DNA of 55,306 nt from Patescibacteria group bacterium (GTDB taxonomy: Bacteria > Patescibacteriota > Minisyncoccia > Phycocordibacterales > UBA9973), in NCBI GenBank assembly GCA_040388575.1, contig JAZKBO010000001.1, forward strand, positions 74,776-130,081, in the 5' to 3' direction. Numbering within the stretch: position 1 is the stretch's first letter; the number at the start of each line of letters is the position of its first letter. The position numbers and the translations under genes were made by a program. The notes beneath the pieces were generated by a model that worked only from the letters and a program-made list of their open reading frames with translations, searched no databases and was not told the origin of the DNA. Below are positions 10,395-43,627 of this stretch, piece by piece.

Positions 10395-10525
10395 ATTGTG
10401 TGACCTCTTTGCAGAGGTAAATAATTATTAATAAAGTAAAAAATTGACATTCTTTACTCTACGAAATCATCAATACATAATTCATGACTTTGTAGAGTAG
10501 GAAACGTGAGGGGATTGACCCAGCA

Positions 10526-10540
10526 CGTTTCCCGGAAACG
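10526..10540 (-). terminator. palindromic hairpin just downstream of the cassette A ORF
   Basis: CGTTTC-CCG-GAAACG, 11 nt beyond the stop. No T-run, so terminator function is uncertain. Confidence 0.3.
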
Positions 10541-10550
10541 ATGCGAACGC

Positions 10551-11216
10551 TTAGTACCTGATCCAGTTGTGCGTCGCGATGACGCTCACCACCGCAAACG
10601 TACTGTCATGGTCACGAGTGGCCATGATGATCGCAGTGGTGCCGCCGGCGACCGCGCCAGCGATGAGGAAGTTGCGGACCTTGTGCGACTTCGAGGTGGC
10701 GACGGATGGAGTGAAGTCACGGCCATCTTTGCCGTTCTTTCCATCACGACCGTCCTTGCCGTCCTTCCCGTCAATGCCGTCTTTTCCATCCCGGCCGTCA
10801 CGTCCAGCAAGACCAGCAATCATGAGTGGCGCGGGTTTTGGGAACCAGTCAGAGCGTACGGGGTTTCCGCAACCGTAGACCCAGAGGGCCTTTCCCGTTG
10901 CCTTGTCGACCACCACGGGTACGCCAGGGTAGGCGATACAGGTGACGTCCTTGCCGTTGCCAGAACCATAGGTGATCTTCTGATCCGCTGCGTTGATCAC
11001 CAGGGCTTCCGTTTCCGGGTTGATCTGACGGTTCTTGTTCACTGGGTCGGCACCGACATTGCAGCGGTTGATCGAGGCTGCCTGCGCTGCCGGCTTGGTC
11101 TGGTCGAAGCTCACCCCAGCCGTAGCCGAGTCGAACTTGTCGTTGGTTTCCGCCGCCGCCGTCGTGGCGAGGGTCAGGAGCGCGATGGCCACAAGGGCCG
11201 TTAGCATTTTCTTCAT
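10551..11216 (-). CDS. secreted collagen-like repeat protein with C-terminal TM anchor (foreign composition)
   Basis: 221 aa. Sec-type signal MKKMLTALVAIALLTLATTAAA/E, eleven consecutive G-X-Y triplets (GLAGRDGRDGKDGIDGKDGKDGRDGKNGKDGRD), and the hydrophobic segment FLIAGAVAGGTTAIIMA. GGAGG lies 6 nt before the ATG. Confidence 0.75.
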   Translation of the reverse strand: MKKMLTALVAIALLTLATTAAAETNDKFDSATAGVSFDQTKPAAQAASINRCNVGADPVNKNRQINPETEALVINAADQKITYGSGNGKDVTCIAYPGVPVVVDKATGKALWVYGCGNPVRSDWFPKPAPLMIAGLAGRDGRDGKDGIDGKDGKDGRDGKNGKDGRDFTPSVATSKSHKVRNFLIAGAVAGGTTAIIMATRDHDSTFAVVSVIATHNWIRY

Positions 11217-11313
11217 ATGCGGCCTCCTCTAGGCCATGTCAGTGTGCTTTCCCGCCTCTATTGACGAGCAGGGGAGATTGTTGTTACAACCCCACCTGTA
11301 GTTCCTATTTACG

Positions 11314-11341
11314 ATTATAGCAGATTACAAAAAAATGTCAA
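11314..11341 (-). promoter_or_regulatory. near-consensus promoter driving cassette A
   Basis: On the minus strand: TTGACA (11336-11341), 16-nt spacer, TGcTATAAT with the hexamer at 11314-11319. Implies a ~90 nt leader. Confidence 0.55.
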
Positions 11342-11381
11342 GTACCCCGTAGACAAAACAGGGAGGTATGTTTTTGTGATG

Positions 11382-11453
11382 TGCCCTCACCAGGAATCGA
11401 ACCTGGATCGCAAACTCCGCAAGCTCGCATTCTATCCATTAAACTATGAGGGC
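11382..11453 (-). tRNA. tRNA-Arg, anticodon GCG
   Basis: Manual cloverleaf: acceptor GCCCTCA/TGAGGGC, T-arm CCAGG-TTCGATT-CCTGG, anticodon loop TTGCGGA. 4-nt variable loop and no encoded CCA. Confidence 0.7.
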
Positions 11454-11481
11454 AATATTTTATTGTTTTTTTAGATTAGCA

Positions 11482-11946
11482 CTAAAATCCGAGCGAATCA
11501 ATTATTTTCTCAGATGTCGGCTCCTTCATTTCTTCTTCGATAATATTTTTAGAAACAAAAACTTCACGAATTTGCTCAGCTGACTCGGGGTGGATCGGTA
11601 CACTGATGATCGGCATAAAAAATCTACTGGATTTAATAAAAAGCTTAGGATCAATTTCTTTCCGTACCCAGAAGGTGGAAATAGTTTCATAAGGGTAGAG
11701 GTGAGTGCCCATTTTTAATCCCTTTTCATTTAATTCATAAAAAACAGTGTCGGGCTTTTTAATCGCAAAAAATCCAAGGAGTACCCCGCCTAAAATAACT
11801 AAAACGGCAAAAAAATAATTGCTATAAATAATTGAGGTGATGGCCGCCGCAAAGATGATAACACCGAGAGCCCAGAACCAATCATTGCTGCGATCCTTCT
11901 CTTCATATTCGAGCGCGGACCATTGTAGAGTTTGATTGCTATCCAT
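11482..11946 (-). CDS. hypothetical membrane protein (two TM segments plus soluble domain)
   Basis: 154 aa with hydrophobic hairpin WFWALGVIIFAAAITSIIY...FAVLVILGGVLLGFFAI. No family recognised. Confidence 0.6.
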   Translation of the reverse strand: MDSNQTLQWSALEYEEKDRSNDWFWALGVIIFAAAITSIIYSNYFFAVLVILGGVLLGFFAIKKPDTVFYELNEKGLKMGTHLYPYETISTFWVRKEIDPKLFIKSSRFFMPIISVPIHPESAEQIREVFVSKNIIEEEMKEPTSEKIIDSLGF

Positions 11947-11988
11947 ACAATAATTATATCAAATAGACAGTTTAAAACAATTAACTCC

Positions 11989-12016
11989 TTGAATTCTGGC
12001 GATTTCTTGGTATAGT
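11989..12016 (+). promoter_or_regulatory. promoter for tRNA-Ser / ruvX transcript
   Basis: TTGAAT (11989-11994), 16-nt spacer, TATAGT (12011-12016). The tRNA starts 13 nt later. Confidence 0.45.
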
Positions 12017-12028
12017 TTGCATACCAGA

Positions 12029-12113
12029 GGAGGCGTGGCAGAGTGGTCTATCGCACTTGTCTTGAAAACAAGAGTGCCGCAAGGCACCGTGAGTTCGAAT
12101 CTCACCGCCTCCG
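12029..12113 (+). tRNA. tRNA-Ser, anticodon TGA
   Basis: Acceptor GGAGGCG/CGCCTCC, anticodon loop CTTGAAA, long variable arm GTGCCGCAAGGCAC, T-loop TTCGAAT. Confidence 0.85.
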
Positions 12114-12114
12114 C

Positions 12115-12510
12115 ATGAGATTTTTGGGCATTGATTATGGAACAAAGAGGGTAGGCATAGCCATCTCGGACGAGGAAGGTAAGTTAGCCTTTCCAAAAGA
12201 GGTGTTAATGAATGACGATAATGTGCTAACCAAGCTAGGGAAGATTATAGAGAGTGAAAATATAACCGAAATAGTAATCGGGGAATCTACAGATTTGGTA
12301 GGAAAGGATAACAAGGTTGCTAAAGAAATTGAAAATCTAATCAAGGAGCTTACAGTTAAATTTTTCATACCTATCCACAAACAAAAAGAATTTTTTACTT
12401 CAGTGGAGGCCCGCAGGTATGGCAATAGCGATGGTGATGTGCGAAAATCTGTAGATGCATCCGCTGCAGCTTTAATTCTACAAAGATATTTGGATAAGAT
12501 AAATAACTAA
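12115..12510 (+). CDS. ruvX: Holliday junction resolvase-like RuvX (YqgF)
   Basis: MRFLGIDYGTKRVGIA N-terminus. The ORF-track start at 12043 would overlap the tRNA, so it is trimmed to ATG 12115, 1 nt after the tRNA discriminator base. Confidence 0.85.
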   Translation: MRFLGIDYGTKRVGIAISDEEGKLAFPKEVLMNDDNVLTKLGKIIESENITEIVIGESTDLVGKDNKVAKEIENLIKELTVKFFIPIHKQKEFFTSVEARRYGNSDGDVRKSVDASAAALILQRYLDKINN

Positions 12511-12511
12511 T

Positions 12512-12841
12512 ATGATAAGCATAGATGACTTTCAAAAAATTGAATTAAGGGTGGGGAAAATTCTATCTGCAGAGAAGGTGCCAGAGACAGACAAACTTCT
12601 AAAACTCTCAGTGGACATGGGTGAGGCAACACCCAGGCAGATTATTTCAGGAATTTCCTTATATTTTCCAGATTGTGCGGTGCTTGTGGGTAAAAAATGT
12701 ATGTTCGTGGCCAACCTTGAACCCCGAGTAATCCGGGGGCTTGAAAGCCAAGGCATGATTCTAGCTGTTTCCACTGAGGATGGTGATTTTTCCCTCCTCG
12801 AGCCTAGAGATGTTATCCCGACAGGGGCTAGGGCTAAATAA
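12512..12841 (+). CDS. tRNA-binding domain protein (CsaA / EMAP-like)
   Basis: 109 aa. The pattern FQKIELRVGKILSAEKVPETDKLLKLSVDMGE...QIISGI is typical of the MetRS C-terminal / CsaA OB fold. Confidence 0.8.
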   Translation: MISIDDFQKIELRVGKILSAEKVPETDKLLKLSVDMGEATPRQIISGISLYFPDCAVLVGKKCMFVANLEPRVIRGLESQGMILAVSTEDGDFSLLEPRDVIPTGARAK

Positions 12842-12882
12842 GCGTAGCAGTAAAAAACAGAATACAGTATAATACTGTATAT

Positions 12883-13959
12883 ATGTCTAGGAATTTATTT
12901 AATAGATTTTTTCCGACACCAAGATTCCTAATGGCGCCTTCCTTCGGATTAGATATTTCTGATGAATCTTTAAAGTTCGTGGAATTAATCCCAGCCAAGA
13001 GTGGAATCAAGATAGGCCGCTATGGTGAACGTAAAATCCCAGCAGGCATTATTGAGTCAGGTAAAATAAAAGACCCGAAGAAACTAGGAGAAGTTTTACT
13101 ATCACTTCAAAAAGAAGAGGGGATACGCTTTGTGCGGGTGTCCTTACCTGAAGAACAAGTATATTTGTTTCGGCTAAAACTAGATAAAAAGGGTTTAGAG
13201 AATGTCCGCGAGGCTATTGAGCTCTCGCTCGAGGAGCACGTGCCTATTCCTGCCCAGGATGCGATATTTGATTATGAAATATTGGGCGAGAATGATCAAA
13301 GTCTGGACTTGGAGGTGGCTGCAATCCCCAAAAACGTGATTGAAAATTATTTATTAGTCTTTCGAAATTCAACCCTATCTGTCCAGTCATTCGAGCTCGA
13401 AGCGCAGGCAATATCGCGAGCCGTGATAAAGAAGGGTGATATGGAGACGTATATGATAGTAGACTTCGGGCAGACACGGACTGGAATTTTTATAATTTCG
13501 CGCGGAGTGGCCGTCTTCACCTCAACGCTAGACCTCGGTGGAGCAACCCTTTCTCAGATGATCCAGAAGAATTTTAATATTGATAAGGAAGCGGCGGAAA
13601 AAATGAAAATGAAATTCGGGTTAGAGCGCAATATGAAAAATAAAGAATTGTTTTCTGTACTTCTTAATACCGTATCAGTTTTGCGCGATGAAATTGCTAA
13701 GAATTTTCTATACTGGCAAACCCATAAAGATGAAGAAGGCAATGATCGTCCAGCGATAACAAAAGTTATTCTTTGTGGCGGGGATGCCAACCTCATTGGC
13801 CTAGCTGAATATCTATCCATCAGTATTAAAAATAAAGTAGAAGTGGCTAATGTTTGGTTAAATATCGTCGACACACAAAAGCATATTCCAGAAATTACAT
13901 TTAATCGCTCTCTTGCCTACGCGGCGGCCTTCGGACTAGCACTAGGAGACTTCGAGTAA
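12883..13959 (+). CDS. pilM: type IV pilus assembly protein PilM
   Basis: 358 aa actin-like ATPase fold pattern (GLDISDESLKFVEL..., VDFGQTRTG, CGGDANL). Followed by PilN/PilO-like genes. Confidence 0.8.
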   Translation: MSRNLFNRFFPTPRFLMAPSFGLDISDESLKFVELIPAKSGIKIGRYGERKIPAGIIESGKIKDPKKLGEVLLSLQKEEGIRFVRVSLPEEQVYLFRLKLDKKGLENVREAIELSLEEHVPIPAQDAIFDYEILGENDQSLDLEVAAIPKNVIENYLLVFRNSTLSVQSFELEAQAISRAVIKKGDMETYMIVDFGQTRTGIFIISRGVAVFTSTLDLGGATLSQMIQKNFNIDKEAAEKMKMKFGLERNMKNKELFSVLLNTVSVLRDEIAKNFLYWQTHKDEEGNDRPAITKVILCGGDANLIGLAEYLSISIKNKVEVANVWLNIVDTQKHIPEITFNRSLAYAAAFGLALGDFE

Positions 13960-13963
13960 ACAT

Positions 13964-14506
13964 ATGATTAATCTTATCCCCAATGAGGAAAAAAAGAGTA
14001 AGGTTAAGGATTTTTACTTCCGCTTGTTAGTAACATCCTTTATGGTCGTGGCAGTTTCCATGCTAGTTGCTTCCGCGGCTATTTTACCAGCTTTCTTTTT
14101 TTCCTTGGTCAAAAAAAATCTTACTGATTCAAAATTAGCTGCACAAAAGAGTGAACCCTTGCCAGCTTTAGACCAGAAGACCTTAGACGAGGTTAAGGAC
14201 CTAAATACTAAACTTAATTTAGTAGAAAAAACACAAAAAAATAAATATTCAATTTCTCAAAAAATAATTAACGAAATTGTCGCAGAAAAAATGAGCGATA
14301 TTAAAATCACCCAAATTTTATATCAGAGCGACCCTGCCAAAGGTAAAACTGTGACCATAGGCGGTACAGCATCTTCCCGAGAGCGGTTGCTTTTATTCAA
14401 ACAAACCCTAGCGGATAATGTAGCTTTCAAAAAGGTTGACTTACCCATTTCTAATTTCGTTAAGGGGTCCGATATTAAATTTTCTATAAATTTAGTTCCT
14501 GCCTAA
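13964..14506 (+). CDS. pilN: PilN-like pilus assembly protein
   Basis: 180 aa with a single N-terminal TM then a periplasmic domain. 4 nt after pilM. Called mainly by architecture and position. Confidence 0.55.
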   Translation: MINLIPNEEKKSKVKDFYFRLLVTSFMVVAVSMLVASAAILPAFFFSLVKKNLTDSKLAAQKSEPLPALDQKTLDEVKDLNTKLNLVEKTQKNKYSISQKIINEIVAEKMSDIKITQILYQSDPAKGKTVTIGGTASSRERLLLFKQTLADNVAFKKVDLPISNFVKGSDIKFSINLVPA

Positions 14507-14507
14507 A

Positions 14508-15062
14508 ATGGAAAATAAATTCAAAAAATTTAAAAAGGTACCTCTAATTGTTTCTACAATTTTACTTATTACTTCGTGCTCGCTTTTCATTTACTTATAT
14601 CAAAATACTCAAAAGAACGATCAAGTTTCAAGCGACCTCGAAAAGCAATTGAAAGATGAGGCAAGTAAACGCGAAGAGGTAAAGTCCCTTGACCGTATGC
14701 TAAAAAGCATGGAAGGCGAGAGAGCAACACTCGATAGCCACTTTATTGTTGGGGCGAGCTCGGATGCAGTTCCTTTCCTTAATATGCTTGAAACTTTGGC
14801 CCCAAAAGTAGGAGCTGAAGCCGCAGTTGCCTTGGTGGATGCGCCTAAAGATAATAGCGGCCTAGTGGTCGGAGTAAATGTGCAAGGATCATTTGAGTCG
14901 CTTTATAAATTCATAACTTTACTTGAAAACGCACCATATGAACTCGACGTCCTGTATGTTGACCTTGAGCGGGGCCAAGAGACAACATCAGCGGACGGGG
15001 TAGAAGCTCCAGTCAAATGGTCAGCAGTAATTAAGGTTAAACTTTTAAGTTTTGTCCCCTAA
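14508..15062 (+). CDS. pilO: PilO-like pilus assembly protein
   Basis: 184 aa with an N-terminal TM, a coiled coil and a C-terminal domain. 1 nt after the pilN-like gene. Called by position. Confidence 0.5.
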   Translation: MENKFKKFKKVPLIVSTILLITSCSLFIYLYQNTQKNDQVSSDLEKQLKDEASKREEVKSLDRMLKSMEGERATLDSHFIVGASSDAVPFLNMLETLAPKVGAEAAVALVDAPKDNSGLVVGVNVQGSFESLYKFITLLENAPYELDVLYVDLERGQETTSADGVEAPVKWSAVIKVKLLSFVP

Positions 15063-15069
15063 AATAATC

Positions 15070-15378
15070 ATGAATTTAAAATTCCCTAAAATTAAAAAAA
15101 CTTTCAGGAAAGGTGGACTCCATACTAACCCAGACGTGTATTGGGATATTATGCAAGCGGCAGCATTTATATTAGTGGTGTCTTCTTTTATTTTTGGATT
15201 TTATCTTTTCCGTAAAATTGATCGAGAATTTATTACTATCAATGATGATTCAAATAGCCAGATAAAACTAATCGGCAAGGAAAGAATTGATAAGATCCTC
15301 CAGTATTTTGCAGATAAGGAAAAAAATTCTAATGAAATACTAAATTCTCCCTCGCCCATCATTGACCCCTCTAAGTAA
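15070..15378 (+). CDS. small membrane protein at end of pil cluster
   Basis: The ATG at 15070 is preferred over the overlapping TTG at 15052. One TM (AAAFILVVSSFIFGFYLF). No family recognised. Confidence 0.45.
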   Translation: MNLKFPKIKKTFRKGGLHTNPDVYWDIMQAAAFILVVSSFIFGFYLFRKIDREFITINDDSNSQIKLIGKERIDKILQYFADKEKNSNEILNSPSPIIDPSK

Positions 15379-15390
15379 AAATGGTAATTT
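15362..15390 (+). promoter_or_regulatory. promoter for tRNA-Val/tRNA-Arg/rluA-like transcript
   Basis: TTGACC (15362-15367), 17-nt spacer, TGgTAATTT with the hexamer at 15385-15390. tRNA-Val starts 9 nt later. Confidence 0.45.
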
Positions 15391-15398
15391 AACCTTAT

Positions 15399-15471
15399 GC
15401 GCGCTTAGCTCAGTTGGTAGAGCGCTTCATTTACACTGAAGATGTCGGGGGTTCGAGTCCCTCAGCGCGCA
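15399..15471 (+). tRNA. tRNA-Val, anticodon TAC
   Basis: Acceptor GCGCGCT/AGCGCGC, D-loop AGCTCAGTTGGTAGAGC, anticodon loop TTTACAC, T-loop TTCGAGT. Confidence 0.9.
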
Positions 15472-15486
15472 CATGACGTCCACCAT

Positions 15487-15561
15487 GCCTTCGTAGTTCA
15501 ATGGATAGAACAGGGCTCTTCTAAGGCCTTGATGTAGGTTCGATTCCTACCGAAGGCACCA
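15487..15561 (+). tRNA. tRNA-Arg, anticodon TCT (encoded CCA)
   Basis: Acceptor GCCTTCG/CGAAGGC, anticodon loop CTTCTAA, T-loop TTCGATT, then ACCA. Confidence 0.85.
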
Positions 15562-15562
15562 G

Positions 15563-16225
15563 ATGAAAATAAAAGTTTTATATGAGGACTCAAATATTTT
15601 TGCTATCGACAAGCCGTCAGGTATTATGGTGCACCCAGATGAGCGAAGTAAAGAAAAAACGATTTTGGATTTATTTATTAAAAAATATCCGAAAGTTGAG
15701 GTGGTCCATCGTTTAGACAAAGATACTTCCGGAGTGATGTTATTAGCAAAAAATAAAAAAGCACATGAATTTTTGAAGCATCAATTTCAAGAGCGGACAA
15801 TAAAAAAGATTTATAATGCTATTGTTTCGGGCTCGGTGAAGCACGACAGGGGAATAATAAATAAGCCAATAGGTCGCAGCCCAAAGGATTTCCGCCGTTG
15901 GCTAGCCGGCAGGGGAGCTCGAGGTGAATTGCGAGACGCAGTTACCGACTATAAAGTTTTAAAAAGATTTACTGATAAAGGAATTAAATTTACTTACTTG
16001 GAAGTTAAGCCCAAAACCGGCCGCACACATCAAATCCGGGTCCATATGAAATTCCTAAATCATCCAGTTGCCTGCGACCCCCTTTATAATCCTGATAGCC
16101 CCAAGCCTACTGGCTTTAAGCGCCTGGCGCTCCACGCCGCGTCTATAGAATTCAAAAATCTAGCCGGCAAGACTATAAAAATAGAATCACCATTACCGCT
16201 TGAGTTTAAAAAAATCCTCAAATAA
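15563..16225 (+). CDS. RluA-family pseudouridine synthase
   Basis: Catalytic motif HRLDKDTSGVMLLAK and GRTHQIRVH. The ATG begins 1 nt after the tRNA CCA end. Confidence 0.85.
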   Translation: MKIKVLYEDSNIFAIDKPSGIMVHPDERSKEKTILDLFIKKYPKVEVVHRLDKDTSGVMLLAKNKKAHEFLKHQFQERTIKKIYNAIVSGSVKHDRGIINKPIGRSPKDFRRWLAGRGARGELRDAVTDYKVLKRFTDKGIKFTYLEVKPKTGRTHQIRVHMKFLNHPVACDPLYNPDSPKPTGFKRLALHAASIEFKNLAGKTIKIESPLPLEFKKILK

Positions 16226-16272
16226 CTTCGTTTGCCATAAAAAACCTTTTGTGCTAAAGTGTTTTTACTATT

Positions 16273-16692: not shown

Positions 16693-16711
16693 TTTGCTAT
16701 AATCTAATTAA

Positions 16712-16795
16712 GCGCGGGTGGCGAAACTGGTAGACGTACTACCTTGAGGTGGTAGCGCTCGCAAGAGCTTGGGAGTTCGAGTCTCCCCCCGCGCA
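16712..16795 (+). tRNA. tRNA-Leu, anticodon GAG
   Basis: Acceptor GCGCGGG/CCCGCGC, anticodon loop TTGAGGT, long variable arm, T-arm GGGAG-TTCGAGT-CTCCC. TGcTATAAT (hexamer 16698-16703) lies just upstream. Confidence 0.85.
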
Positions 16796-16804
16796 CAAGT
16801 TTAG

Positions 16805-16832
16805 TTGATTTTTAAATAAAAAGTGGTATTCT
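16805..16832 (+). promoter_or_regulatory. promoter driving cassette B
   Basis: TTGATT (16805-16810), 16-nt spacer, TGgTATTCT with the hexamer at 16827-16832. Confidence 0.45.
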
Positions 16833-16881
16833 TTTACCGGACACGTCTACGGATAGATAATTCATTTGACGGAGGTACACG

Positions 16882-17091
16882 ATGGACCAGCGTACAAGGA
16901 TAGTCGAAAACCAGTGCGCCAAGCACTACGGCACGGCGATTCTGGCCCGCCCGCCCCACCACATCGAGGAGCCCACCACGGCGCCGAAAAGCGTCGCCAC
17001 GGCGGCTGCGAAGAAGCCGACGACCCTCGAGAAGTTCAGCGGTCCGCCCGACCTTCAGCCGATCTCCAGTTCGGATCCGCGATGGAAGTGA
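16882..17091 (+). CDS. hypothetical 69-aa ORF B1 (may be non-coding)
   Basis: GGAGG (16871-16875) lies 6 nt before the ATG. The product is Pro/Ala-rich with no recognisable fold. High GC makes chance ORFs likely. Confidence 0.3.
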   Translation: MDQRTRIVENQCAKHYGTAILARPPHHIEEPTTAPKSVATAAAKKPTTLEKFSGPPDLQPISSSDPRWK

Positions 17092-17291
17092 AGCAGGCGG
17101 CCGCCAAGCAGCTCAACCTACTCGCCGTCGGGGAGCCATCATCATTCACTCCACCGCGCCGACCCACACCTTCACTCCAGACACTCAATCTGCGGCGGGA
17201 TGTGTGTATCGAGCTCGCCCGGCGACGTCGCCGAGCACAAATTGCGGCCCGACTCGCCCTCAAGCGCGCCGAACGCAACAGTCAGTCGTAG
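17082..17291 (+). CDS. hypothetical 69-aa ORF B2 overlapping B1 by 10 nt (may be non-coding)
   Basis: ATG at 17082 sits inside the end of B1 (..GCGATGGAAGTGA..). Very basic C-terminal helix ELARRRRRAQIAARLALKRAER. No independent SD. Confidence 0.2.
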   Translation: MEVKQAAAKQLNLLAVGEPSSFTPPRRPTPSLQTLNLRRDVCIELARRRRRAQIAARLALKRAERNSQS

Positions 17292-17299
17292 TCATCATC

Positions 17300-17340
17300 G
17301 CGCCGGCCGCGGATCTTTTCCAAAAAAGATCCCCCGGCGC
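17300..17340 (+). terminator. 16-bp GC-rich composite stem-loop closing cassette B
   Basis: GCGCCGG/CCGGCGC outer stem and GGATCTTTT/AAAAGATCC inner stem with loop CCAA. No T-run follows. Confidence 0.45.
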
Positions 17341-17351
17341 GAAAACGTTTA

Positions 17352-17360
17352 TGGTAGAAT
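17352..17360 (+). promoter_or_regulatory. extended -10 element TGgTAGAAT for leaderless msrB
   Basis: The hexamer ends 6 nt before ATG 17367, so the predicted start site coincides with the start codon. Confidence 0.45.
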
Positions 17361-17366
17361 ATAAAT

Positions 17367-17735: not shown

Positions 17736-17741
17736 TAATTT

Positions 17742-18320: not shown

Positions 18321-18324
18321 TAAA

Positions 18325-33889: not shown

Positions 33890-33986
33890 TTTTGCTACCG
33901 CAAATTACCCTGAGCTTGTCGAAGGGTAGTCTGGGGATAAACTATTGCTATTATACGCACTAACGTAGTGGTATAATTTAGTGGCT

Positions 33987-34880
33987 ATGATCAACGCAGA
34001 TCTTTTGAACTATATCAAACAAGCACAGCTCTCTGGTAAATCTATCGAAGTTATCAAACAAGAACTCGCCACCGGCGGCTGGAATGCTGCGGATGTCGCT
34101 GAAGCACTACAAAGTCTTTCCGTTGGAGTTTCAGCGGTGACTCCTGCCATGGCCGCTACTGCTGGAGGTATGGGCATGAAAGCAATAATTACAATTCTGG
34201 TTTTAGTCGTACTCGCTGCAGGCGGCTATTTTGCGTATTCAAAATATAAACAACCAAGCGTCGAAGAAGTAAGTATTAACCAAGAACAAACTATGAATAC
34301 TCCAACACCAACTCCTGTTGCGCAAAACACAGAATCAATTCCTGCTCCGTTTACTTGTAAAGATATATTTACAGAGTCTGACTTTGTAAGAATAACAGGC
34401 AAAGGCGCTGCAGATTACAAAGTGGAAGAAAAAACAAGCGCAGCTGCAAACGCGGGCAATTCAGCCAACCTAACTTGTTCTTACACTAAACCCGATCCTA
34501 GTAAATCTGATCCAATTTCTTTTAACCTAACTGTTATTTGGTATCCAATAAATAACGTGGCGGAAACAGATCTTGAGGTTTCTACCGATGCCTTGGTACA
34601 GAGCGCAAAAAGTATGGCAGCAGGATTTCCAGACAGTGAAGCCAAGACCCAGCAGATGAATATTGCTAAAGTCGCGGTTCCGGGCGTGGGAGCTAAAGCA
34701 TACACACTGCAGAGTGGGAGCATGGGAGGGGGATGGCTCTTTTTTCTCAGCAGTAATAAAAAATATAATGTAATGTTTACGTATCTTGATTTTGCAAATT
34801 TGGGTAAGGCAAATAATGGAGCTTTGACTAAAGAAAAATTAATCGGCCAGACTATCGATGCGCATTTAAGTAAATATTAA
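33987..34880 (+). CDS. hypothetical membrane protein (small helical N-domain, TM, TP-linker, extracellular domain)
   Basis: TGgTATAAT (hexamer 33972-33977) lies 9 nt before ATG 33987; GTG 33981 is also possible. Paralogous TM-linker shared with the next gene. Confidence 0.6.
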   Translation: MINADLLNYIKQAQLSGKSIEVIKQELATGGWNAADVAEALQSLSVGVSAVTPAMAATAGGMGMKAIITILVLVVLAAGGYFAYSKYKQPSVEEVSINQEQTMNTPTPTPVAQNTESIPAPFTCKDIFTESDFVRITGKGAADYKVEEKTSAAANAGNSANLTCSYTKPDPSKSDPISFNLTVIWYPINNVAETDLEVSTDALVQSAKSMAAGFPDSEAKTQQMNIAKVAVPGVGAKAYTLQSGSMGGGWLFFLSSNKKYNVMFTYLDFANLGKANNGALTKEKLIGQTIDAHLSKY

Positions 34881-34902
34881 TTATCAGTAAATTAACTCAA
34901 GA

Positions 34903-35541
34903 ATGAACTCTAAACTAATCATATTTATCATCGCCTTGCTGGTCATAAGTGGTGGATACTTTGCATATTCAAAATATTACCAACCAAGTGTCGAAAAAAT
35001 AAATATTAACCAAGAACAAGCCATGAATAATACTCCAACACCTACACCCACTTACCCAGCAACTAATAAAAATCCATGTGACACCATAAAAGATCTTGGT
35101 GAAGGGTTTGTTCATCCCGAATATTCTAAAAATGGTGTTAAGGTAGGCCAACCCGAAAATTTCCCTGCCAACCTAATTCCTCCTGGCAGTACCGCGATGG
35201 AATACTACATAAGCTCTGAAAATAAGCAAAGAACTGAAACACTATTTTGTTCCCAAAATAAAGTCCTGGATATTATTGCCAATATGGAAAATACATTACA
35301 ATCCAACTCCTATAAAAAATCTGATCCTTGGCACAAAACAGCCACCGATGCCACATTTCGCTTCAGTGTAGAAGGCACCCATCGTTTTGTTGACGGCGAA
35401 CTTCTTGGGGGAGTGGTTACAATTATGGAAGTTAGGCAAGTACCTTTTGATTCAAATAGTCCCATTGTCGGTGTCTTAATAGATATTATTGTAGATCACC
35501 GATGCATATATGGCACTGGTGGGGTTAATACGTGTAATTAA
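34903..35541 (+). CDS. hypothetical membrane-anchored protein, partial paralog of preceding gene
   Basis: Shares GGYFAYSKY.QPSVE..INQEQ.MN.TPTPTP with the upstream gene (DNA 34951-35049 against 34221-34316). Confidence 0.6.
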   Translation: MNSKLIIFIIALLVISGGYFAYSKYYQPSVEKININQEQAMNNTPTPTPTYPATNKNPCDTIKDLGEGFVHPEYSKNGVKVGQPENFPANLIPPGSTAMEYYISSENKQRTETLFCSQNKVLDIIANMENTLQSNSYKKSDPWHKTATDATFRFSVEGTHRFVDGELLGGVVTIMEVRQVPFDSNSPIVGVLIDIIVDHRCIYGTGGVNTCN

Positions 35542-35556
35542 AAGTATAATAATTTT

Positions 35557-35751
35557 ATGGACATAATAAACAAAATTTTCTCAATGTTTAGTAAGGCGAA
35601 TAATGCCATGATGAAGGCGAACTCCATGCAGTACACTGTTAACCGGGCGGAAAGCTCATACAACAATATTTCTAAAGCACCGAGTAAGTGGAAAATGGTC
35701 ATTTACATCGTAATTGCGATTGTGGTTATCCTATACTTCATCTTTGGATAG
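35557..35751 (+). CDS. hypothetical 64-aa C-tail-anchored protein
   Basis: TATAAT (35545-35550) ends 6 nt before the ATG. C-terminal TM WKMVIYIVIAIVVILYFIF. Confidence 0.45.
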   Translation: MDIINKIFSMFSKANNAMMKANSMQYTVNRAESSYNNISKAPSKWKMVIYIVIAIVVILYFIFG

Positions 35752-35757
35752 GTCGCG

Positions 35758-35786
35758 TTGCAATAAAAAGGCTTTTGTTATATATT
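35758..35786 (+). promoter_or_regulatory. promoter of fusA
   Basis: TTGCAA (35758-35763), 17-nt spacer, TATATT (35781-35786). Confidence 0.4.
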
Positions 35787-35818
35787 ATCTCTAGCGCGTT
35801 TGGCGCTATTTTAATTAT

Positions 35819-37966: not shown

Positions 37967-37971
37967 CCTAT

Positions 37972-38000
37972 TTGACTTATCCTTTTTAGGGTGCATAATT
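37972..38000 (+). promoter_or_regulatory. promoter driving cassette C
   Basis: TTGACT (37972-37977), then TGCATAATT (37992-38000). The -10 reads CATAAT or ATAATT with a 16 or 17 nt spacer. Confidence 0.4.
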
Positions 38001-38045
38001 AGATTTTAGGAACCACTCGATCTTCAAATAAGGAGAAACTCGACG

Positions 38046-38513
38046 ATGAAGAATTTTCGCGCGCTTTTCGAAGCGGAACTCGAAGGGACTGACGGCCAGG
38101 CGACGATCATCGGTGCGAGGGAGCTGTTGCCCACCAAGCACATTGACCCTCGTTTCGAAGCCATCCACAAGTCTGGGCCGGCGACACCGCCGACCAAGAT
38201 CCAGGTACAGGAGCTGGCTGTTAACGGAGAGCTCCTTGACCTTCTCCAAGACGTCTCCGCATTCGATACGCTGCCTTTCATGCAAAGCCAGATCGTCCAG
38301 GTTTGTCATCGGCACCCTGACTGGCTTCAGGCAAACGGAATGCCCAACCTCTTCCTTTGCAAGATGGGGGAGGCCAACTCGGACCTGTTTGTGGTCAGCG
38401 CCTTTCTGGACAACTGGAGCCGCTTCTTCTTCATGAGGCGCGAGCTTCATGAAAGGATTCTCTGGCGCGGGCGGCAGTTTCATCTCCGCTTCTTCTTCAA
38501 GGTGAGGCGATAG
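38046..38513 (+). CDS. hypothetical 155-aa cytoplasmic protein of foreign composition
   Basis: AAGGAG (38030-35) lies 10 nt before the ATG. No TM or signal and no family recognised. The odd Arg/Phe-rich C-terminus could reflect a frameshift. Confidence 0.5.
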   Translation: MKNFRALFEAELEGTDGQATIIGARELLPTKHIDPRFEAIHKSGPATPPTKIQVQELAVNGELLDLLQDVSAFDTLPFMQSQIVQVCHRHPDWLQANGMPNLFLCKMGEANSDLFVVSAFLDNWSRFFFMRRELHERILWRGRQFHLRFFFKVRR

Positions 38514-38526
38514 TCGCCCAAAATTA

Positions 38527-38567
38527 GGAGGGAATCAACCCTCCCATCCCCGGACCAAGGTTCGGGG
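38527..38567 (+). terminator. two tandem GC hairpins closing cassette C
   Basis: GGAGGG-AATCAA-CCCTCC (38527-38544) and CCCCGGAC-CAAG-GTTCGGGG (38548-38567). No clear T-run. Confidence 0.4.
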
Positions 38568-38601
38568 ATTACTCATTATATTCAAAGGTAATTATTCGGG
38601 T

Positions 38602-38629
38602 TTGACAATATACTTCAATCTGCTAATAT
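38602..38629 (+). promoter_or_regulatory. promoter of tuf (long ~160 nt leader)
   Basis: TTGACA (38602-38607), 16-nt spacer, TGcTAATAT with the hexamer at 38624-38629. Confidence 0.5.
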
Positions 38630-38794
38630 AACAATAACTGCACTTTTGGCAGTTTTTCTATTGCTTTTTTTGTAAAAATACTAAAAAAGCTAGATATTAT
38701 TAAGGTTTTTAACATCGTTAGTAATTAGGCCTTAGCGACTGGTTCTCGTACGCTGGGTCCTCATTATTAAGCCCGCCCAATTGGCGGAAATTAT

Positions 38795-39985
<1,191 letters not shown>

Positions 39986-40004
39986 TTAATCTAGCTTATA
40001 GTTC

Positions 40005-40424
40005 ATGGCAACAACAGAAACAAAAGTAAAAAAACCGAAAGCAAAAACTGCTGCTCCTAAAACTCCTAAGGCTTCTAAGATTTCTGCGAGGAAAGATAAG
40101 GCTGAAGGTGGTGAGGGTAAGGTAATATTGCGTATCCGAGTTCGTGCTTACGAGAGCAAGATCTTGGATGCCTCGGTCAAACAAATAATGGATACCGCTA
40201 CTCGCTATGATGCGAATATTGTGGGTCCAGTACCGTTGCCAACAGAAATAAAAAAGTACACCGTCAACCGCGCGTCTTTCGTTTACAAGAACACTCGCGA
40301 GCAATTCGAAATTCGCGTGCATAAGAGGTTGATCGACATCCATAATCCAAATCCAAAAACAATCGAAGCCCTCACCAACTTGTCACTTCCTTCCGGAGTC
40401 GACATCGACGTGAAGATGATGTAA
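40005..40424 (+). CDS. rpsJ: 30S ribosomal protein S10 with ~37-aa Lys/Ala/Pro-rich N-terminal extension
   Basis: The core ILRIRVRAYESKILD...RLIDI is preceded by MATTETKVKKPKAKTAAPKTPKASK... Confidence 0.9.
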   Translation: MATTETKVKKPKAKTAAPKTPKASKISARKDKAEGGEGKVILRIRVRAYESKILDASVKQIMDTATRYDANIVGPVPLPTEIKKYTVNRASFVYKNTREQFEIRVHKRLIDIHNPNPKTIEALTNLSLPSGVDIDVKMM

Positions 40425-40436
40425 CTATAATTTAAA

Positions 40437-41051
40437 ATGAAATTCATTTTGGCCACAAAAGAAAATATGATGGAATATTTCACCCCAGAAGGTGAGGTTG
40501 TTCCAGTGACCATCGTGAAAGCGGGTCCAATTACTGTTACCCGAGTATTTTCGAAAGACAAAGACGGTTATGATTCCGTACAAGTAGGCTTCGGCAATCA
40601 ATCCAAGCACAGAATCAACAAGCCAGAAGCTGGCGTCATGAAGGACGCACAGTATCGAACGCTCAAAGAATTCAGACTCAAAGTAACTGATAAAAGCGAA
40701 GCCAAAGTAGGTGATGTCATTGACGTCAGCGCCTTTGCTCCCGGAGACAAGCTCCAAGTTTCAAGTATTTCCAAGGGTAAAGGCTTCCAAGGTGTGGTTA
40801 AGCGCCATGGCTTTGCTGGTGGCCCACGAACTCATGGTCAGAAGCATTCTGAACGCGAGCCAGGTTCCATCGGCGGAGGTCTTCGAACTCATGTGCCGAA
40901 GGGTATGCGCATGGCTGGCCGCATGGGCTCCGACCGTATCACTCAAAAGAATTTGAAAGTAGTTATGGTTGATCCAGAAAATAATTTAATGTTGATCAAG
41001 GGCGCAATTACGGGCAAGCGTGGCACTCTGGTTGAGATAGTCGCAAGATAA
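40437..41051 (+). CDS. rplC: 50S ribosomal protein L3
   Basis: GKGFQGVVKRHGFAGGPRTHGQ motif. Confidence 0.95.
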   Translation: MKFILATKENMMEYFTPEGEVVPVTIVKAGPITVTRVFSKDKDGYDSVQVGFGNQSKHRINKPEAGVMKDAQYRTLKEFRLKVTDKSEAKVGDVIDVSAFAPGDKLQVSSISKGKGFQGVVKRHGFAGGPRTHGQKHSEREPGSIGGGLRTHVPKGMRMAGRMGSDRITQKNLKVVMVDPENNLMLIKGAITGKRGTLVEIVAR

Positions 41052-41055
41052 ATAT

Positions 41056-41754
41056 ATGGAAGCAAAAACCCCAACCAAAACTAAAGAGGCAATGAGCGCT
41101 AAGATATACGACCAAAAGGGTAAAGATGCCGGCAGTATTGATCTTCCAGCTAAAGTTTTCGGCGTGAAGTGGCGTGCTGACTTGGTCCACCAAGTAGTAG
41201 AGAGTATGCGCAGTAATAAGCGCGCAGGCACAGCGGACACTAAAGGCCGCGGGGAAGTGCGTGGAGGTGGCCGTAAACCTTGGAAACAAAAGGGTACCGG
41301 TAGAGCTCGTCACGGATCATCTAGAAGCCCTATCTGGGTAGGTGGAGGTGTAACTCACGGTCCACTTGCAGAGAAGAACTACAAGAGGAAAATTTCCAAG
41401 AAAATGCGAGCTCAAGCACTATTTTCCGTACTTTCAAAGAAGATGAAAGACGGGGAAATACTCTTCGTTGATTCTTTAAATATTACACCTATCAAGACCA
41501 AGACTGGCGTGCAGGTAGTAAATAGCTTGGCCAAGGTTTTGAAGTTTAACGCAGGATCTAGAAGTGTAAAGCCAAGAATCCTGACTGCTTTATATGAACG
41601 TAACCCAAATGCTGAAAAAAGCCTACGTAATATCCCAACTCTTGAAATAGCCTTTTTGAAAAATCTAAATCCACTAGATGTCCTTAATCACAAATACCTT
41701 TTGATCGAAAATCCAACAGAATCTGTTAAATTTTTAGAATCCCGATCCAAATAA
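41056..41754 (+). CDS. rplD: 50S ribosomal protein L4
   Basis: GGGRKPWKQKGTGRARHGS motif. Confidence 0.95.
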   Translation: MEAKTPTKTKEAMSAKIYDQKGKDAGSIDLPAKVFGVKWRADLVHQVVESMRSNKRAGTADTKGRGEVRGGGRKPWKQKGTGRARHGSSRSPIWVGGGVTHGPLAEKNYKRKISKKMRAQALFSVLSKKMKDGEILFVDSLNITPIKTKTGVQVVNSLAKVLKFNAGSRSVKPRILTALYERNPNAEKSLRNIPTLEIAFLKNLNPLDVLNHKYLLIENPTESVKFLESRSK

Positions 41755-41762
41755 AATAATTT

Positions 41763-42032
41763 ATGTCTACAATTATTAAAACCCCAAGAATTACCGAAAA
41801 AGCATCCAACCTCCTAGAAGGCCGGGTTTATACTTTTGATATTACGGGGAGCGCCAACAAAAATGAAGTCAAGAAAGCAGTTTTCGAAATTTATAAAGTC
41901 AAACCCGTTAAAGTCAATGTGCTCCGAGTGCCTAAGAAGAATACGATGGTGCGCGGCAAGACCTTTACCCGAGGCGGTGGACGCAAGGCATTTGTATATT
42001 TAAAAGAAGGGGATAAGATCGAGTTCATCTAA
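41763..42032 (+). CDS. rplW: 50S ribosomal protein L23
   Basis: 89 aa with IIKTPRITEKA...KAFVYLKEG. Confidence 0.9.
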   Translation: MSTIIKTPRITEKASNLLEGRVYTFDITGSANKNEVKKAVFEIYKVKPVKVNVLRVPKKNTMVRGKTFTRGGGRKAFVYLKEGDKIEFI

Positions 42033-42871
42033 TGAAAACATACAAACCGACAAGTAAATCCCGAAGACAAATGAGCCACGTTACCTACCGTGGAGTCTTG
42101 ACCAAGACCGAGCCGACAAAGGCGCTCCTTCATGGTTTCCGCCGTATGGTGGGCCGCAACAGTGCAGGCCGCATTACCATGAGGCACAAGGGTGGCGGAC
42201 ACAAGCGCCTCTACCGAGATGTCGACTTTTTATACAACAAGCATGATATCCCAGCTAAAATAACTTCAGTTGAGTACGATCCTAACCGTTCTGCTTTCAT
42301 CGGGCTCGCTATCTATAAAGATGGAGAGAAGAGGTATGTGGTGTTGCCGAAATCTGTAAAGCCAGGGGACTCTTTTATTGTTTCCGAAAAAGCGGAATTA
42401 AATCCTGGAAACAGATTACCACTCAAAAATATTCCAGTAGGAACTTTTGTTTACAATGTGGAGATCAAGCCAAAGGGTGGCGCTAAGATCGGCCGCTCTG
42501 CAGGAATCTTTGCTCAAGTAGTAGCGAATGCGGAAGGTTATACAAACCTGAAGATGCCATCGACTGAAGTGCGCAAAATAAATGAAAATTGCTGGGCGTG
42601 CGTAGGTACAGTTTCAAACGAAGAATATCATTTGCAAAATTTCGGTAAGGCTGGACGATCTCGCTGGAAGGGTATCCGCCCTACAGTACGCGGTACTGCC
42701 ATGAACCCAGTAGACCACCCATACGGTGGAGGTGAAGGCCGCCAAGGCCGAGGCACCAAGCGCCCTAAGACTATGTGGGGTAAAGTTACTGGTGGCAGGA
42801 AGACCCGCACTCCAAAGAAGTACTCAAACATTTTCATCGTTTCTCGAAGGAAGACTGGCAAGAAGGAGTAA
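42032..42871 (+). CDS. rplB: 50S ribosomal protein L2
   Basis: GRITMRHKGGGHKRLYR and RGTAMNPVDHPYGGGEG motifs. Confidence 0.97.
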   Translation: MKTYKPTSKSRRQMSHVTYRGVLTKTEPTKALLHGFRRMVGRNSAGRITMRHKGGGHKRLYRDVDFLYNKHDIPAKITSVEYDPNRSAFIGLAIYKDGEKRYVVLPKSVKPGDSFIVSEKAELNPGNRLPLKNIPVGTFVYNVEIKPKGGAKIGRSAGIFAQVVANAEGYTNLKMPSTEVRKINENCWACVGTVSNEEYHLQNFGKAGRSRWKGIRPTVRGTAMNPVDHPYGGGEGRQGRGTKRPKTMWGKVTGGRKTRTPKKYSNIFIVSRRKTGKKE

Positions 42872-42876
42872 AGTAT

Positions 42877-42904
42877 TTGCTTTATTCTCAATAAAGAATA
42901 GAAT
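42877..42904 (+). promoter_or_regulatory. promoter at left edge of cassette D
   Basis: TTGCTT (42877-42882), 16-nt spacer, TAGAAT (42899-42904). Confidence 0.4.
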
Positions 42905-42910
42905 TATTCA

Positions 42911-43069
42911 CCAGAGGTCCCCATGGAAATATTCCAAGGCGTTGACGATGAAGAGCATCTCACGCGCGACCCGCTCAGTAACTGCTGCGACGCGTATCTG
43001 TATGTTGCAGACTCACGCCGCCGCAAACGCCGAAGCTTCCGACACCATCGGAGCCCGGCGTTTTTTTTT
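42911..43069 (+). ncRNA. candidate ~160-nt GC-rich small transcript (promoter to intrinsic terminator)
   Basis: Bounded by the promoter at 42877-42904 and a strong terminator. The only ORF (42923..) has no stop before the terminator. Local hairpin TGGAA-ATA-TTCCA. No family recognised. Confidence 0.3.
43028..43069 (+). terminator. strong rho-independent terminator inside the rplB-rpsS gap
   Basis: CGCCG/CGGCG (43028-32 / 43056-60) plus TTCCGA/TCGGAG inner stem, 5-nt loop, followed by T9 (43061-43069). Confidence 0.8.
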
Positions 43070-43083
43070 ATTAACACTTTTAC

Positions 43084-43111
43084 TTGCGTAAAAATAAAAG
43101 AAGAATACACT
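43084..43111 (+). promoter_or_regulatory. possible internal promoter of cassette D second unit
   Basis: TTGCGT (43084-89), 16-nt spacer, TACACT (43106-11), in the AT-rich spacer right after the terminator. Confidence 0.3.
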
Positions 43112-43209
43112 TATTCTCAGATCGCAACCCGATCGGAAGGGGGACCGTCACAGAGGCAAGTCTCTATCCACGTTCGGTAAGTTCACAGTCACGTCACTCG
43201 GAGGTTCTC

Positions 43210-43458
43210 ATGCCAAGTCGTTTCAATGGCTGCTCAAGTCGGGATCACGAGGCGCACATGATGAAGGACGCCGCCGCCTTTGGCCGGCGCCCGGATCGTG
43301 TCCGTCATCTGTCGTTGGCGCCCACCACCAGGGTGGTGCCGCGCGAAGCGCCGCTCGTGTCGCTCCGACCGAAGGCTCCGCCGGACGCCGGGCAGGGAAG
43401 CATCAATCTCATGGCCGGGAACAACAGCAGTCGTGCGGCCGTGAGGGGGGTGATCTAA
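43210..43458 (+). CDS. hypothetical 82-aa ORF D2 (may be non-coding)
   Basis: GGAGG (43200-04) lies 5 nt before the ATG. The product is Arg/Pro/Ala-rich without a recognisable fold. Chance ORFs are likely at this GC. Confidence 0.3.
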   Translation: MPSRFNGCSSRDHEAHMMKDAAAFGRRPDRVRHLSLAPTTRVVPREAPLVSLRPKAPPDAGQGSINLMAGNNSSRAAVRGVI

Positions 43459-43523
43459 CTATCTCCCGCAGCGCTAACACCGTTGCGGGTCGCGTTCGAC
43501 CTTGCGTGTTTGCTTCAACATCC

Positions 43524-43542
43524 AGCTAACAACGTGTTAGCT
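43524..43542 (+). other. perfect 8-bp hairpin AGCTAACA-ACG-TGTTAGCT
   Basis: Seen directly. A second hairpin, CCCGCA...TGCGGG, is at 43465-43489. The GCTAACA heptamer occurs in both. Confidence 0.5.
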
Positions 43543-43551
43543 CTCGCCAAC

Positions 43552-43598
43552 CACCCGGTTCTCGACTTTCTGTCGGGACCCGGGTGTGTCTATTTTTA
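43552..43598 (+). terminator. terminator closing cassette D
   Basis: CACCCGG/CCGGGTG outer stem and TCGAC/GTCGG inner stem, followed by TGTCTATTTTTATTT. Confidence 0.6.
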
Positions 43599-43599
43599 T

Positions 43600-43627
43600 T
43601 TGACTTTCTAAGGGTATTTGCTATTAT
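43600..43627 (+). promoter_or_regulatory. promoter of rpsS and downstream ribosomal genes
   Basis: TTGACT (43600-05), 16-nt spacer, TGcTATTAT with the hexamer at 43622-27. Confidence 0.5.

Follow-up and report, generated by a model that had tools for sequence, protein, structure and literature searches.

A stretch of 55,306 nucleotides from the genome of a Patescibacteria group bacterium (contig JAZKBO010000001.1, positions 74,776 to 130,081; hereafter the window) raises the question of why four short segments, A to D, are far richer in G+C (GC) than the DNA around them, two of them lying beside transfer RNA (tRNA) genes and two between genes of the str/S10 ribosomal-protein cluster. Compositional islands are commonly taken as recent horizontal transfer or, in metagenome bins, as contamination. 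A preliminary description of the window offered transfer from high-GC donors, miniature insertion cassettes, structured RNAs and a chimeric or engineered assembly as possible explanations. We find that all four segments truly belong to a chromosome of the Patescibacteria (the candidate phyla radiation, CPR; Paceibacteria-like), and we consider it probable, at roughly 0.62, that they are autonomous units resembling phage morons (see below), which form a GC-rich gene class dependent on the Shine-Dalgarno (SD) sequence.

GC content was profiled along the window in 200-nt and finer steps, and robust z scores were calculated from overlapping 300-nt windows (n = 1101; median GC 42.3%, robust standard deviation 4.9%). 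The abrupt shift originally described persists in these sliding windows, since all 24 of the 1101 with z ≥ 3 lie inside segments A–D. At 200-nt resolution GC is 59–65% in A (10601–11200), 64% in B (17001–17200), 52–56% in C (38001–38600) and 56–68% in D (43201–43600); the figure of 57–70% first given for C is too high, as that segment measures only 52–58%. The GC-rich tracts are as follows.

10500–11290: tract A, GC 59–65%.
16870–17345: tract B, GC up to 66%.
38050–38570: tract C, GC 52–58%.
42930–43060 and 43110–43590: tract D, GC up to 68%.

The segment boundaries are sharp and coincide with promoters and terminators, and the extent of each tract follows the predicted transcript, not the open reading frame (ORF) alone. 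A common layout of promoter, strong SD, GC-rich ORF and hairpin, as proposed in the preliminary description, was found in each segment in the form of predicted sites, ORFs with periodic GC at third codon positions (GC3) and hairpins. Promoter-like sites match the consensus at 12/12 positions in A, 9/12 in B and 10/12 in C (consensus scan), that of D having been read by eye; an SD motif (GGAGG or AAGGAG) lies 5–10 nt 5' of an ATG in all four; the GC3 of cassette ORFs is 0.73–0.81, compared to 0.40 ± 0.06 in 67 native ORFs; and the 3' ends carry GC stem-loops (inverted repeats, folds). One unit per segment holds for A, B and C, while D consists of two stacked units, D1 (42905–43070, with its own terminator) and D2 (43100–43600); among the predicted cassette terminators, only those of D1 and D2 have a clear T-run after the hairpin. 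A five-nucleotide (5-mer) SD precedes only 3 of the 67 native ORFs and is missing from the other 64, in line with the earlier statement that native genes here nearly lack one. Each unit lies between the stop codon of a native gene and the following gene's own promoter, and the predicted signals suggest small stretches transcribed autonomously, each comprising a sigma-70-type promoter, an SD leader, a GC-rich coding body and a GC stem-loop terminator.

The age of one unit, A, can be judged from other genomes. Its ORF is on the minus strand, a correction to the earlier account, and its features are these.

11381–11453, minus strand: tRNA-Arg(GCG), the upstream neighbour of A (ARAGORN, Rfam).
11314–11341, minus strand: predicted promoter, TTGACA-16-TG-TATAAT, 12/12 (consensus scan).
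11217–11307, minus strand: 5' untranslated region (UTR) of ~90 nt, bearing a 5'-proximal hairpin; SD GAGGAGG at 11223–11229 (sequence, fold).
10551–11216, minus strand: ORF of 221 aa, GC at codon positions 1/2/3 of 0.59/0.49/0.73.
10455–10532, minus strand: 3' hairpins, a GC stem at 10500–10532 and an AT-rich stem, ACTCTACAAAG...CTTTGTAGAGT, at 10455–10499 (inverted repeats).

The A gene was compared among four genomes: the window, two JGI metagenome sequences (L083 and L084) and the 'Candidatus Paceibacterota' metagenome-assembled genome L001. It adjoins tRNA-Arg(GCG) in all four, and the tRNA gene is in turn preceded by an orthologous membrane-protein gene of 154–171 aa, so that the window, L083 and L084 share [154-aa gene]-tRNA-Arg(GCG)-[A] as their gene order, L001 having one additional gene in between; L083 and the window also have in common tRNA-Ser(TGA), tRNA-Val(TAC) and three more orthologues. 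The four genomes are deeply diverged, their neighbouring orthologues being 46–72% and the A core 56–64% identical. The regulatory signals recur at this distance: an equivalent upstream TTGACA/T-N17-TATAAT is present in L001, L083 and L084, the leaders of the orthologues are 62–91 nt long with a 5'-proximal hairpin of 7–8 bp in 4/4 (of different sequence each time), the SD is kept, and the AT-rich 3' hairpin is conserved in L083 and L084. In each genome A is a GC island, with GC3 against genome or local GC3 of 0.73/0.40, 0.61/0.35, 0.56/0.31 and 0.50/0.27, an offset of 0.23–0.33; the segment is thus GC-rich in 4/4 and in none of them of ordinary composition. Synteny, conserved signals and the GC island in four diverged genomes indicate that A is an old, vertically inherited resident and not a recent import. 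Such divergence should saturate its synonymous sites, and its GC-richness should therefore have decayed unless maintained; its persistence rules out recent transfer from a high-GC donor for A, as had been suggested.

The A protein is surface-anchored and consists, in order, of a signal peptide, a Cys-containing beta domain of ~75 aa (RCNVGADPV...WVYGCGN), ~10 collagen-like GXY triplets and a C-terminal transmembrane (TM) helix without LPXTG. The conserved domain, whose family alignment has 34–37 invariant columns, is modelled by AlphaFold (AF2) as a small beta structure (predicted local distance difference test score, pLDDT, about 90), the confident core of which has no neighbour among PDB structures at E ≤ 0.001 and gives no functional lead. 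Only six other proteins among 5.8 billion share it, a seventh homologue being encoded in L001; this was the sole true homologue in a genome-collection scan with the full A protein, in which 79/80 loci were collagen-repeat noise. The matches to Pfam Collagen (24.1 bits, cutoff 27.2) and NCBIfam SclB (score 25, cutoff 325) are both below threshold.

The adjoining tRNA gene has a feature of its own. Bacterial tRNA-Arg usually has the anticodon ACG, not GCG; the GCG form is found here at window 11381–11453, L001 2992–3066, L083 7469–7541 and L084 5366–5438, and is nearly identical in the four genomes, the differences being paired changes in the T-stem. In L001 the orthologue of the 154-aa gene (2415–2934) is split into two overlapping ORFs, possibly through a frameshift or sequencing error.

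The association of composition with translation signals extends beyond the window. In a pool of five genomes (the window, L083, L084, L001 and L165, a 558-kb scaffold carrying a homologue of the C gene), a 5-mer SD is present in 10/11 GC-rich genes and 4/103 native genes (Fisher p = 1.6e-10). Many native genes of the window, L083, L084 and L165 combine the lack of an SD with a TATAAT-like hexamer that ends 0–12 nt before the ATG; clustering of these hexamers within 12 nt of native start codons suggests that mRNAs with no leader, or a very short one, may be widespread in the clade. L083, a Patescibacteria-like contig, has three further GC-rich, SD-led genes with structured leaders, all for secreted proteins: a tandem pair of PEP-CTERM-signal genes (4789–5349 and 5539–6096) and a Thr/Pro-repeat lipoprotein gene (8576–9835), at 53–64% GC compared to 42% overall. 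PEP-CTERM sorting is normally tied to exosortase-bearing Gram-negative bacteria. At third codon positions both G and C are raised, beyond the levels of tuf and the ribosomal-protein genes. Translational selection was considered as the sole cause of the high GC and rejected: with G- and C-ending codons both raised, ordinary codon adaptation is insufficient. We found no description of such a GC-rich, SD-led gene class in the literature. What unifies the segments, we propose, is a gene class and not an element, its members being GC-rich at all codon positions and in the UTRs, leadered, SD-dependent and often secreted, with A a long-term resident of the class and B, C and D turning over in permissive slots.

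Evidence for such slots comes from C and D, which lie between genes adjacent in distant taxa. Relatives were drawn from a metagenome scan anchored on EF-Tu (tuf), which returned 80 loci; the closest, L085, has an EF-Tu 95% identical and DNA only 70–79% identical to the window. The gap between fusA and tuf is 828 nt in the window, 159–5246 nt in clade relatives and < 100 nt in several distant taxa; that between rplB and rpsS is 805 nt, 219–4284 nt and mostly < 100 nt, respectively, so that both adjacencies are indeed broken, as first described. Neither C nor D is present in any of the 80 relatives, L085 included; in the closest of them the slots are occupied by other cargo. Alignment to relatives stops at the stop codon of the upstream gene and restarts at the promoter of the next (window 38600 and 43593); in L085 and L089 it resumes at the tuf promoter (38600/38601). 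The right edges of the two slots are therefore marked by the following sites.

38602–38629, plus strand: native tuf promoter, right edge of the fusA-tuf slot (scan).
43600–43627, plus strand: native rpsS promoter, right edge of the rplB-rpsS slot (scan; conserved with L085 from 14487 onwards).

The cargo differs from one relative to another. The rplB-rpsS slot of L085 holds a different ORF of 54 aa (GC 0.61, GC3 0.85) in the same promoter/SD/hairpin layout, without similarity to the D2 or B1 peptides, and that of L086 a HicA/HicB-like pair (15195–15726; translations read, no family search). Between fusA and tuf, the two closest relatives, L085 (5390–7888) and L086 (6792–9298), both have pyrimidine-biosynthesis genes resembling pyrD, pyrE and pyrF (translations read, no family search), which are not at this position in the window, and L086 also has pairs of small toxin-antitoxin-like ORFs resembling RelE/ParE (6184–6749 and 9336–9814; translations read only). 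A diacylglycerol-kinase-like membrane protein is the slot cargo in L087 (translation read only). In L089, rplS and tRNA-Leu(GAG) are followed by a different gene and not by B, which is therefore also variable. Since alignment breaks at the upstream stop and resumes at the next promoter, the str/S10 cluster, the most conserved gene order in bacteria, is split in this clade into a series of units, each with a promoter of its own, and the cargo that separates them varies. Elsewhere in the same cluster, ~1.9 kb with three ORFs (33893–35815, from the rpsG region to fusA) is missing from L085, in which the flanks abut; this looks like another variable slot.

C can be placed in a protein family. Its features are listed here.

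37972–37999, plus strand: promoter-like TTGACT-16-CATAAT, 10/12, beginning 6 nt past the fusA stop (consensus scan).
38030–38513, plus strand: SD AAGGAG (38030–38035) and ORF of 155 aa (38046–38513), GC at codon positions 1/2/3 of 0.60/0.37/0.73.
38527–38569, plus strand: two 3' GC hairpins (sequence, scan).

The product is predicted to be a cytoplasmic alpha/beta domain, which AlphaFold models with confidence (pLDDT 89); the model has no PDB match at E ≤ 0.001 and offers no functional lead. No close relative was found among 5.8 billion proteins and a library of 1.84 billion clusters, in which the nearest is 33% identical, while an exhaustive HMMER search recovered 148 homologous clusters at E ≤ 1e-3 with 24–40% identity. 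These are mostly single-domain proteins of 150–250 aa, with a few tandem repeats among them, and none of the 148 contains a Pfam domain. One homologue is annotated 'Patescibacteria group bacterium' and has its paralogue three genes away. C is therefore a genuine protein-coding gene, whose widespread, uncharacterised family has members in the Patescibacteria, and its elevated GC is not a constant of that family: the homologue in L165 is a GC island (GC3 0.62 compared to 0.30–0.35, about +0.3), that in L167 has slightly raised GC3 (+0.08), and those in L168 and L169 have ordinary GC.

These observations lend themselves to a second explanation, that B, C and D (but not A) came from donors of higher GC, likeliest other Patescibacteria or else an unsampled host, recombined into the slots and are ameliorating. 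None of the 80 relatives has C or D, not even that with 95% EF-Tu identity; the slots of relatives carry unrelated cargo; the GC elevation in the C family, from none to +0.3, is what transfers of differing age would leave; and a published survey found gene transfer to be frequent among Patescibacteria, most of the transfers detected in these aquifer genomes staying within the phylum (PMC12455944). Against this, no donor copy was found in the same protein and cluster collections, where the nearest relative of C is the 33% match already mentioned, and no homologue from a high-GC organism turned up for any cassette. The cassette promoters match the native style, and A has the same composition and signals despite vertical inheritance. 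The proposal of recent high-GC transfer thus fails for A, and for B, C and D we regard it as the strongest of the alternatives, if an unlikely one.

The next explanation, that B and D are GC-rich non-coding RNA genes whose short ORFs are incidental, turns on the following features.

16712–16796, plus strand: tRNA-Leu(GAG), directly upstream of B (ARAGORN).
16833–16861, plus strand: B promoter-like TTTACC-17-GATAAT, 9/12 (consensus scan).
16871–17091, plus strand: SD GGAGG (16871–16875) and ORF B1 (16882–17091), 69 aa, orphan, GC at codon positions 1/2/3 of 0.57/0.54/0.81.
17082–17291, plus strand: candidate ORF B2, 69 aa, overlapping the B1 stop (ORF call; frame-specific GC ambiguous, coding uncertain).
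17296–17343, plus strand: GC stem-loop at the 3' end of B, directly next to the extended -10 element of msrB (inverted repeat, fold).
42877–42904, plus strand: post-rplB slot promoter TTGCTT-16-TAGAAT, conserved in L085 (read by eye; the automated scan did not report it).
42914–43070, plus strand: D1, with SD-like GAGGT, ATG at 42923, a predicted GC-rich transcript of ~150 nt and a clean intrinsic terminator (fold and T-run).
43200–43458, plus strand: D2 SD GGAGG (43200–43204) and ORF (43210–43458), 82 aa, orphan, GC at codon positions 1/2/3 of 0.65/0.57/0.76.
43552–43600, plus strand: D2 terminator, with a GC stem of 15 bp and a T-run after it (inverted repeat, fold).

A, beside tRNA-Arg(GCG), and B, beside tRNA-Leu(GAG), are thus the two tRNA-linked cassettes of the preliminary description. 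The protein evidence for B and D is meagre: a concatenated query of B1, B2, D2 and the L085 slot ORF found no homologue and no protein on record, not even the window's own; none is on record for long versions of the B and D ORFs starting at TTG; Pfam, PADLOC and PHROGs returned nothing for the ORFs, and neither did NCBIfam at E ≤ 0.01, in a scan that covered B1, B2 and D2 among them; and the DNA of B and D has no match in phage and plasmid records. The predicted peptides look disordered and the GC-rich tract runs well past the D2 ORF. In D1 the fold z relative to shuffled sequence is -2.8 and the terminator is clean, and the ORF (42923–43180) runs through it with no in-frame stop before, which makes either a small RNA or a remnant the probable identity of D1. 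However, B and D match nothing in Rfam, even with a threshold of E ≤ 1, the whole-unit fold z values are weak (-1.4 and -1.7), and B1 and D2 have GGAGG 5–6 nt before the ATG in a window where 64/67 native genes have no SD. GC3 periodicity is strong in B1 (0.81) and in the analogous L085 ORF (0.85). Given the SD, its spacing to the ATG and the GC3 periodicity, B1 and D2 are probably translated; with A and C being protein genes, structured RNA as the general explanation is not supported, and for B and D it seems to us distinctly improbable.

Two further points concern these units. A TGA read-through joining the B1 frame to a downstream continuation was considered and dropped, as the downstream translation resembles out-of-frame junk. 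D1 and D2 are flanked by short repeats of 'terminator T-run plus promoter' motifs (42873–42882/43614–43623 and 43060–43072/43588–43600), which are consistent with the stacking of units by recombination at junctions and short enough to be due to chance.

That all four segments are a single unrecognised family of miniature mobile insertion cassettes is suggested by their common layout and their positions, two beside tRNA 3' ends and two interrupting conserved gene pairs, but we think it very unlikely. In BLASTN and TBLASTX comparisons the cassettes do not resemble one another, and four genomes have A at the same fixed locus. No integrase or transposase was found in the window, no recombinase gene lies within or next to the cassettes, and they have no terminal inverted repeats, target-site duplications, att-like repeats of tRNA ends or, as would be expected of miniature inverted-repeat transposable elements or insertion sequences, similar copies among themselves; flanking direct repeats amount to nothing beyond chance 10–13-mers. 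The absence of these hallmarks, and of any match to a catalogued RNA, phage or defence family, agrees with what was first reported: Rfam gave no match for the cassettes, whether at the gathering score or with E ≤ 1 as the limit; searches of viral, phage and plasmid records, and of PADLOC, PHROGs and NCBIfam, gave only collagen-repeat matches; and no defence family, nor a toxin-antitoxin family for a possible B1/B2 pair, was matched in PADLOC (E ≤ 0.1), Pfam (E ≤ 1) or NCBIfam (E ≤ 0.01). What survives of the insertion-cassette idea is that the junctions gain and lose small autonomous units.

Lastly, that the segments are assembly or binning chimeras, with high-GC reads spliced into an AT-rich contig, might be read from the abruptness of the change and from the window ending within a GC-rich stretch, but is scarcely credible, since an independent assembler reproduced the A and C junctions exactly on both sides, the boundaries fall at promoters and terminators and not at arbitrary points, and the same compositional pattern occurs in the unrelated assemblies L001, L083, L084, L085 and L165. 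The independent support, which covers A and C, consists of Logan contigs of run SRR26324622: sequence 100% identical to window 8054–11409, found by exact-protein look-up and spanning both A junctions, and another contig that contains the end of fusA, C and 152 nt beyond, spanning both C junctions at 100% identity. A chimeric origin is thereby ruled out for A and C, and is unlikely overall because the pattern recurs in other genomes.

We therefore return to the proposal of moron-like units forming a GC-rich, SD-dependent gene class. The sequence data show how the units are composed and laid out, their synteny and protein families, the association with the SD and the variability of the slots; that the units are transcribed, that B and D are translated, that the messages are stable and what causes the GC-richness are inferences. 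A strong promoter, together with a structured GC-rich mRNA bearing a 5' hairpin and an SD, would give a stable and efficiently initiated message; hairpin terminators would insulate the unit from its neighbours; and units would be gained and lost via recombination at terminator/promoter junctions. The GC-richness would not be the residue of recent import but would be actively maintained, through selection on the mRNA or GC-biased conversion at often-recombining accessory loci. Several points weigh against this proposal. No demonstrated force accounts for the GC-richness, and the variable elevation in the C family fits transfer and amelioration equally as well as a maintained property. Promoters, transcription starts and terminators are predicted from consensus matches; no homologue of B or D was found, and the protein collection records no gene for their products. 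The constant GC3 offset of A rests on four genomes, for which a perfect rank order has a chance of ~1 in 24.

A bolder version, which we offer tentatively and think doubtful, is that the genomes of some Patescibacteria combine two expression regimes, an AT-rich majority of genes that mostly have neither leader nor SD and a small, persistent class of GC-rich, leadered genes that depend on an SD and are enriched in surface, secreted and small orphan proteins. GC3 in this class would be kept 0.2–0.3 above that of the genome by selection on the transcript (for stability, structure or a separate route of initiation) or by biased conversion specific to the locus, and GC islands would be signs of a regulatory class, not of foreign DNA. 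If the gene class is general, the heuristics used to recognise islands and contamination would mislabel native CPR genes, and gene callers would miss its small members, as is the case for the products of B and D, which are unrecorded as genes. It would also point to surface and small proteins expressed by a special route in episymbiont-like bacteria, which would be candidates for involvement in host contact.

Two other observations were made in the window. Its GC-rich end, already remarked on in the preliminary description, comprises the last ~140 nt.

55170–55306, plus strand: possible fifth GC-rich segment, 70–80% GC, cut by the window end (composition).

This stretch includes a 17-bp GC hairpin (55189–55228) and begins inside an ORF that starts at 53732, runs without a stop as far as the window end and matches nothing in Pfam or NCBIfam. 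The stretch may represent an intragenic insertion, a convergent unit or a C-terminal extension rich in GC, and a look-up of neighbouring proteins beyond 55306 found nothing on record. At 2861–3199 on the minus strand there is a sub-threshold match to the Rfam cspA thermoregulator (46.5 bits, gathering score 78, E = 8e-9), covering a 65-aa ORF (2905–3102) and its upstream sequence.

Several known systems resemble these units in part. Unlike integron cassettes, which are promoterless and lie in arrays next to intI, they have their own promoter-like sites and are scattered across 33 kb; neither within them nor beside them was an integrase-like ORF seen (the window was not scanned for intI), and their 3' hairpins have no common sequence. 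Like tRNA-linked islands, they have atypical composition, lie by tRNA 3' ends (A and B), carry accessory or ORFan genes and, in the case of B, C and D, are variably present among relatives. However, each has a single gene with no integrase or att direct repeat, and the units are GC-richer than the genome, whereas islands are usually AT-richer. A, moreover, is conserved in synteny, and its GC3 offset follows the GC3 of the genome; a comparison of presence and absence found it beside tRNA-Arg(GCG) in 4/4 genomes, with B missing in one relative, L089.

Stable, highly expressed mRNAs for surface proteins with structured leaders (S-layer, ompA-type, 'STAB-SD') are known, in which nothing but the leader is known to be special. 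The secreted-protein genes A and those of L083 are similar in having a consensus promoter, a long leader, a 5' hairpin, a strong SD and an exported product, but here the whole predicted transcript is shifted in composition, by 15–25 percentage points. The A protein recalls the Scl/Bcl adhesins in its signal peptide, globular head, (GXY)n stalk and C-terminal anchor, from which it differs in an unrelated head with no PDB match, a stalk of ~10 triplets and a TM anchor in place of LPXTG.

The concept of the moron comes from lambdoid phages, in which autonomous promoter-gene-terminator units are set between conserved phage genes. The units described here differ in lying in a cellular chromosome, in the str/S10 ribosomal-protein cluster and with no prophage (the cassette flanks are fusA, tuf, rplB, rpsS, rplS, msrB and tRNAs, without phage matches), and in that A is an old vertical resident and not a recent addition. 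The single gene of each has a consensus promoter-like site and a 3' GC hairpin, which would serve as its own sigma-70 promoter and intrinsic terminator. The units nevertheless resemble morons in their insertion between genes that adjoin each other in relatives, and in a composition unlike that of their neighbours.

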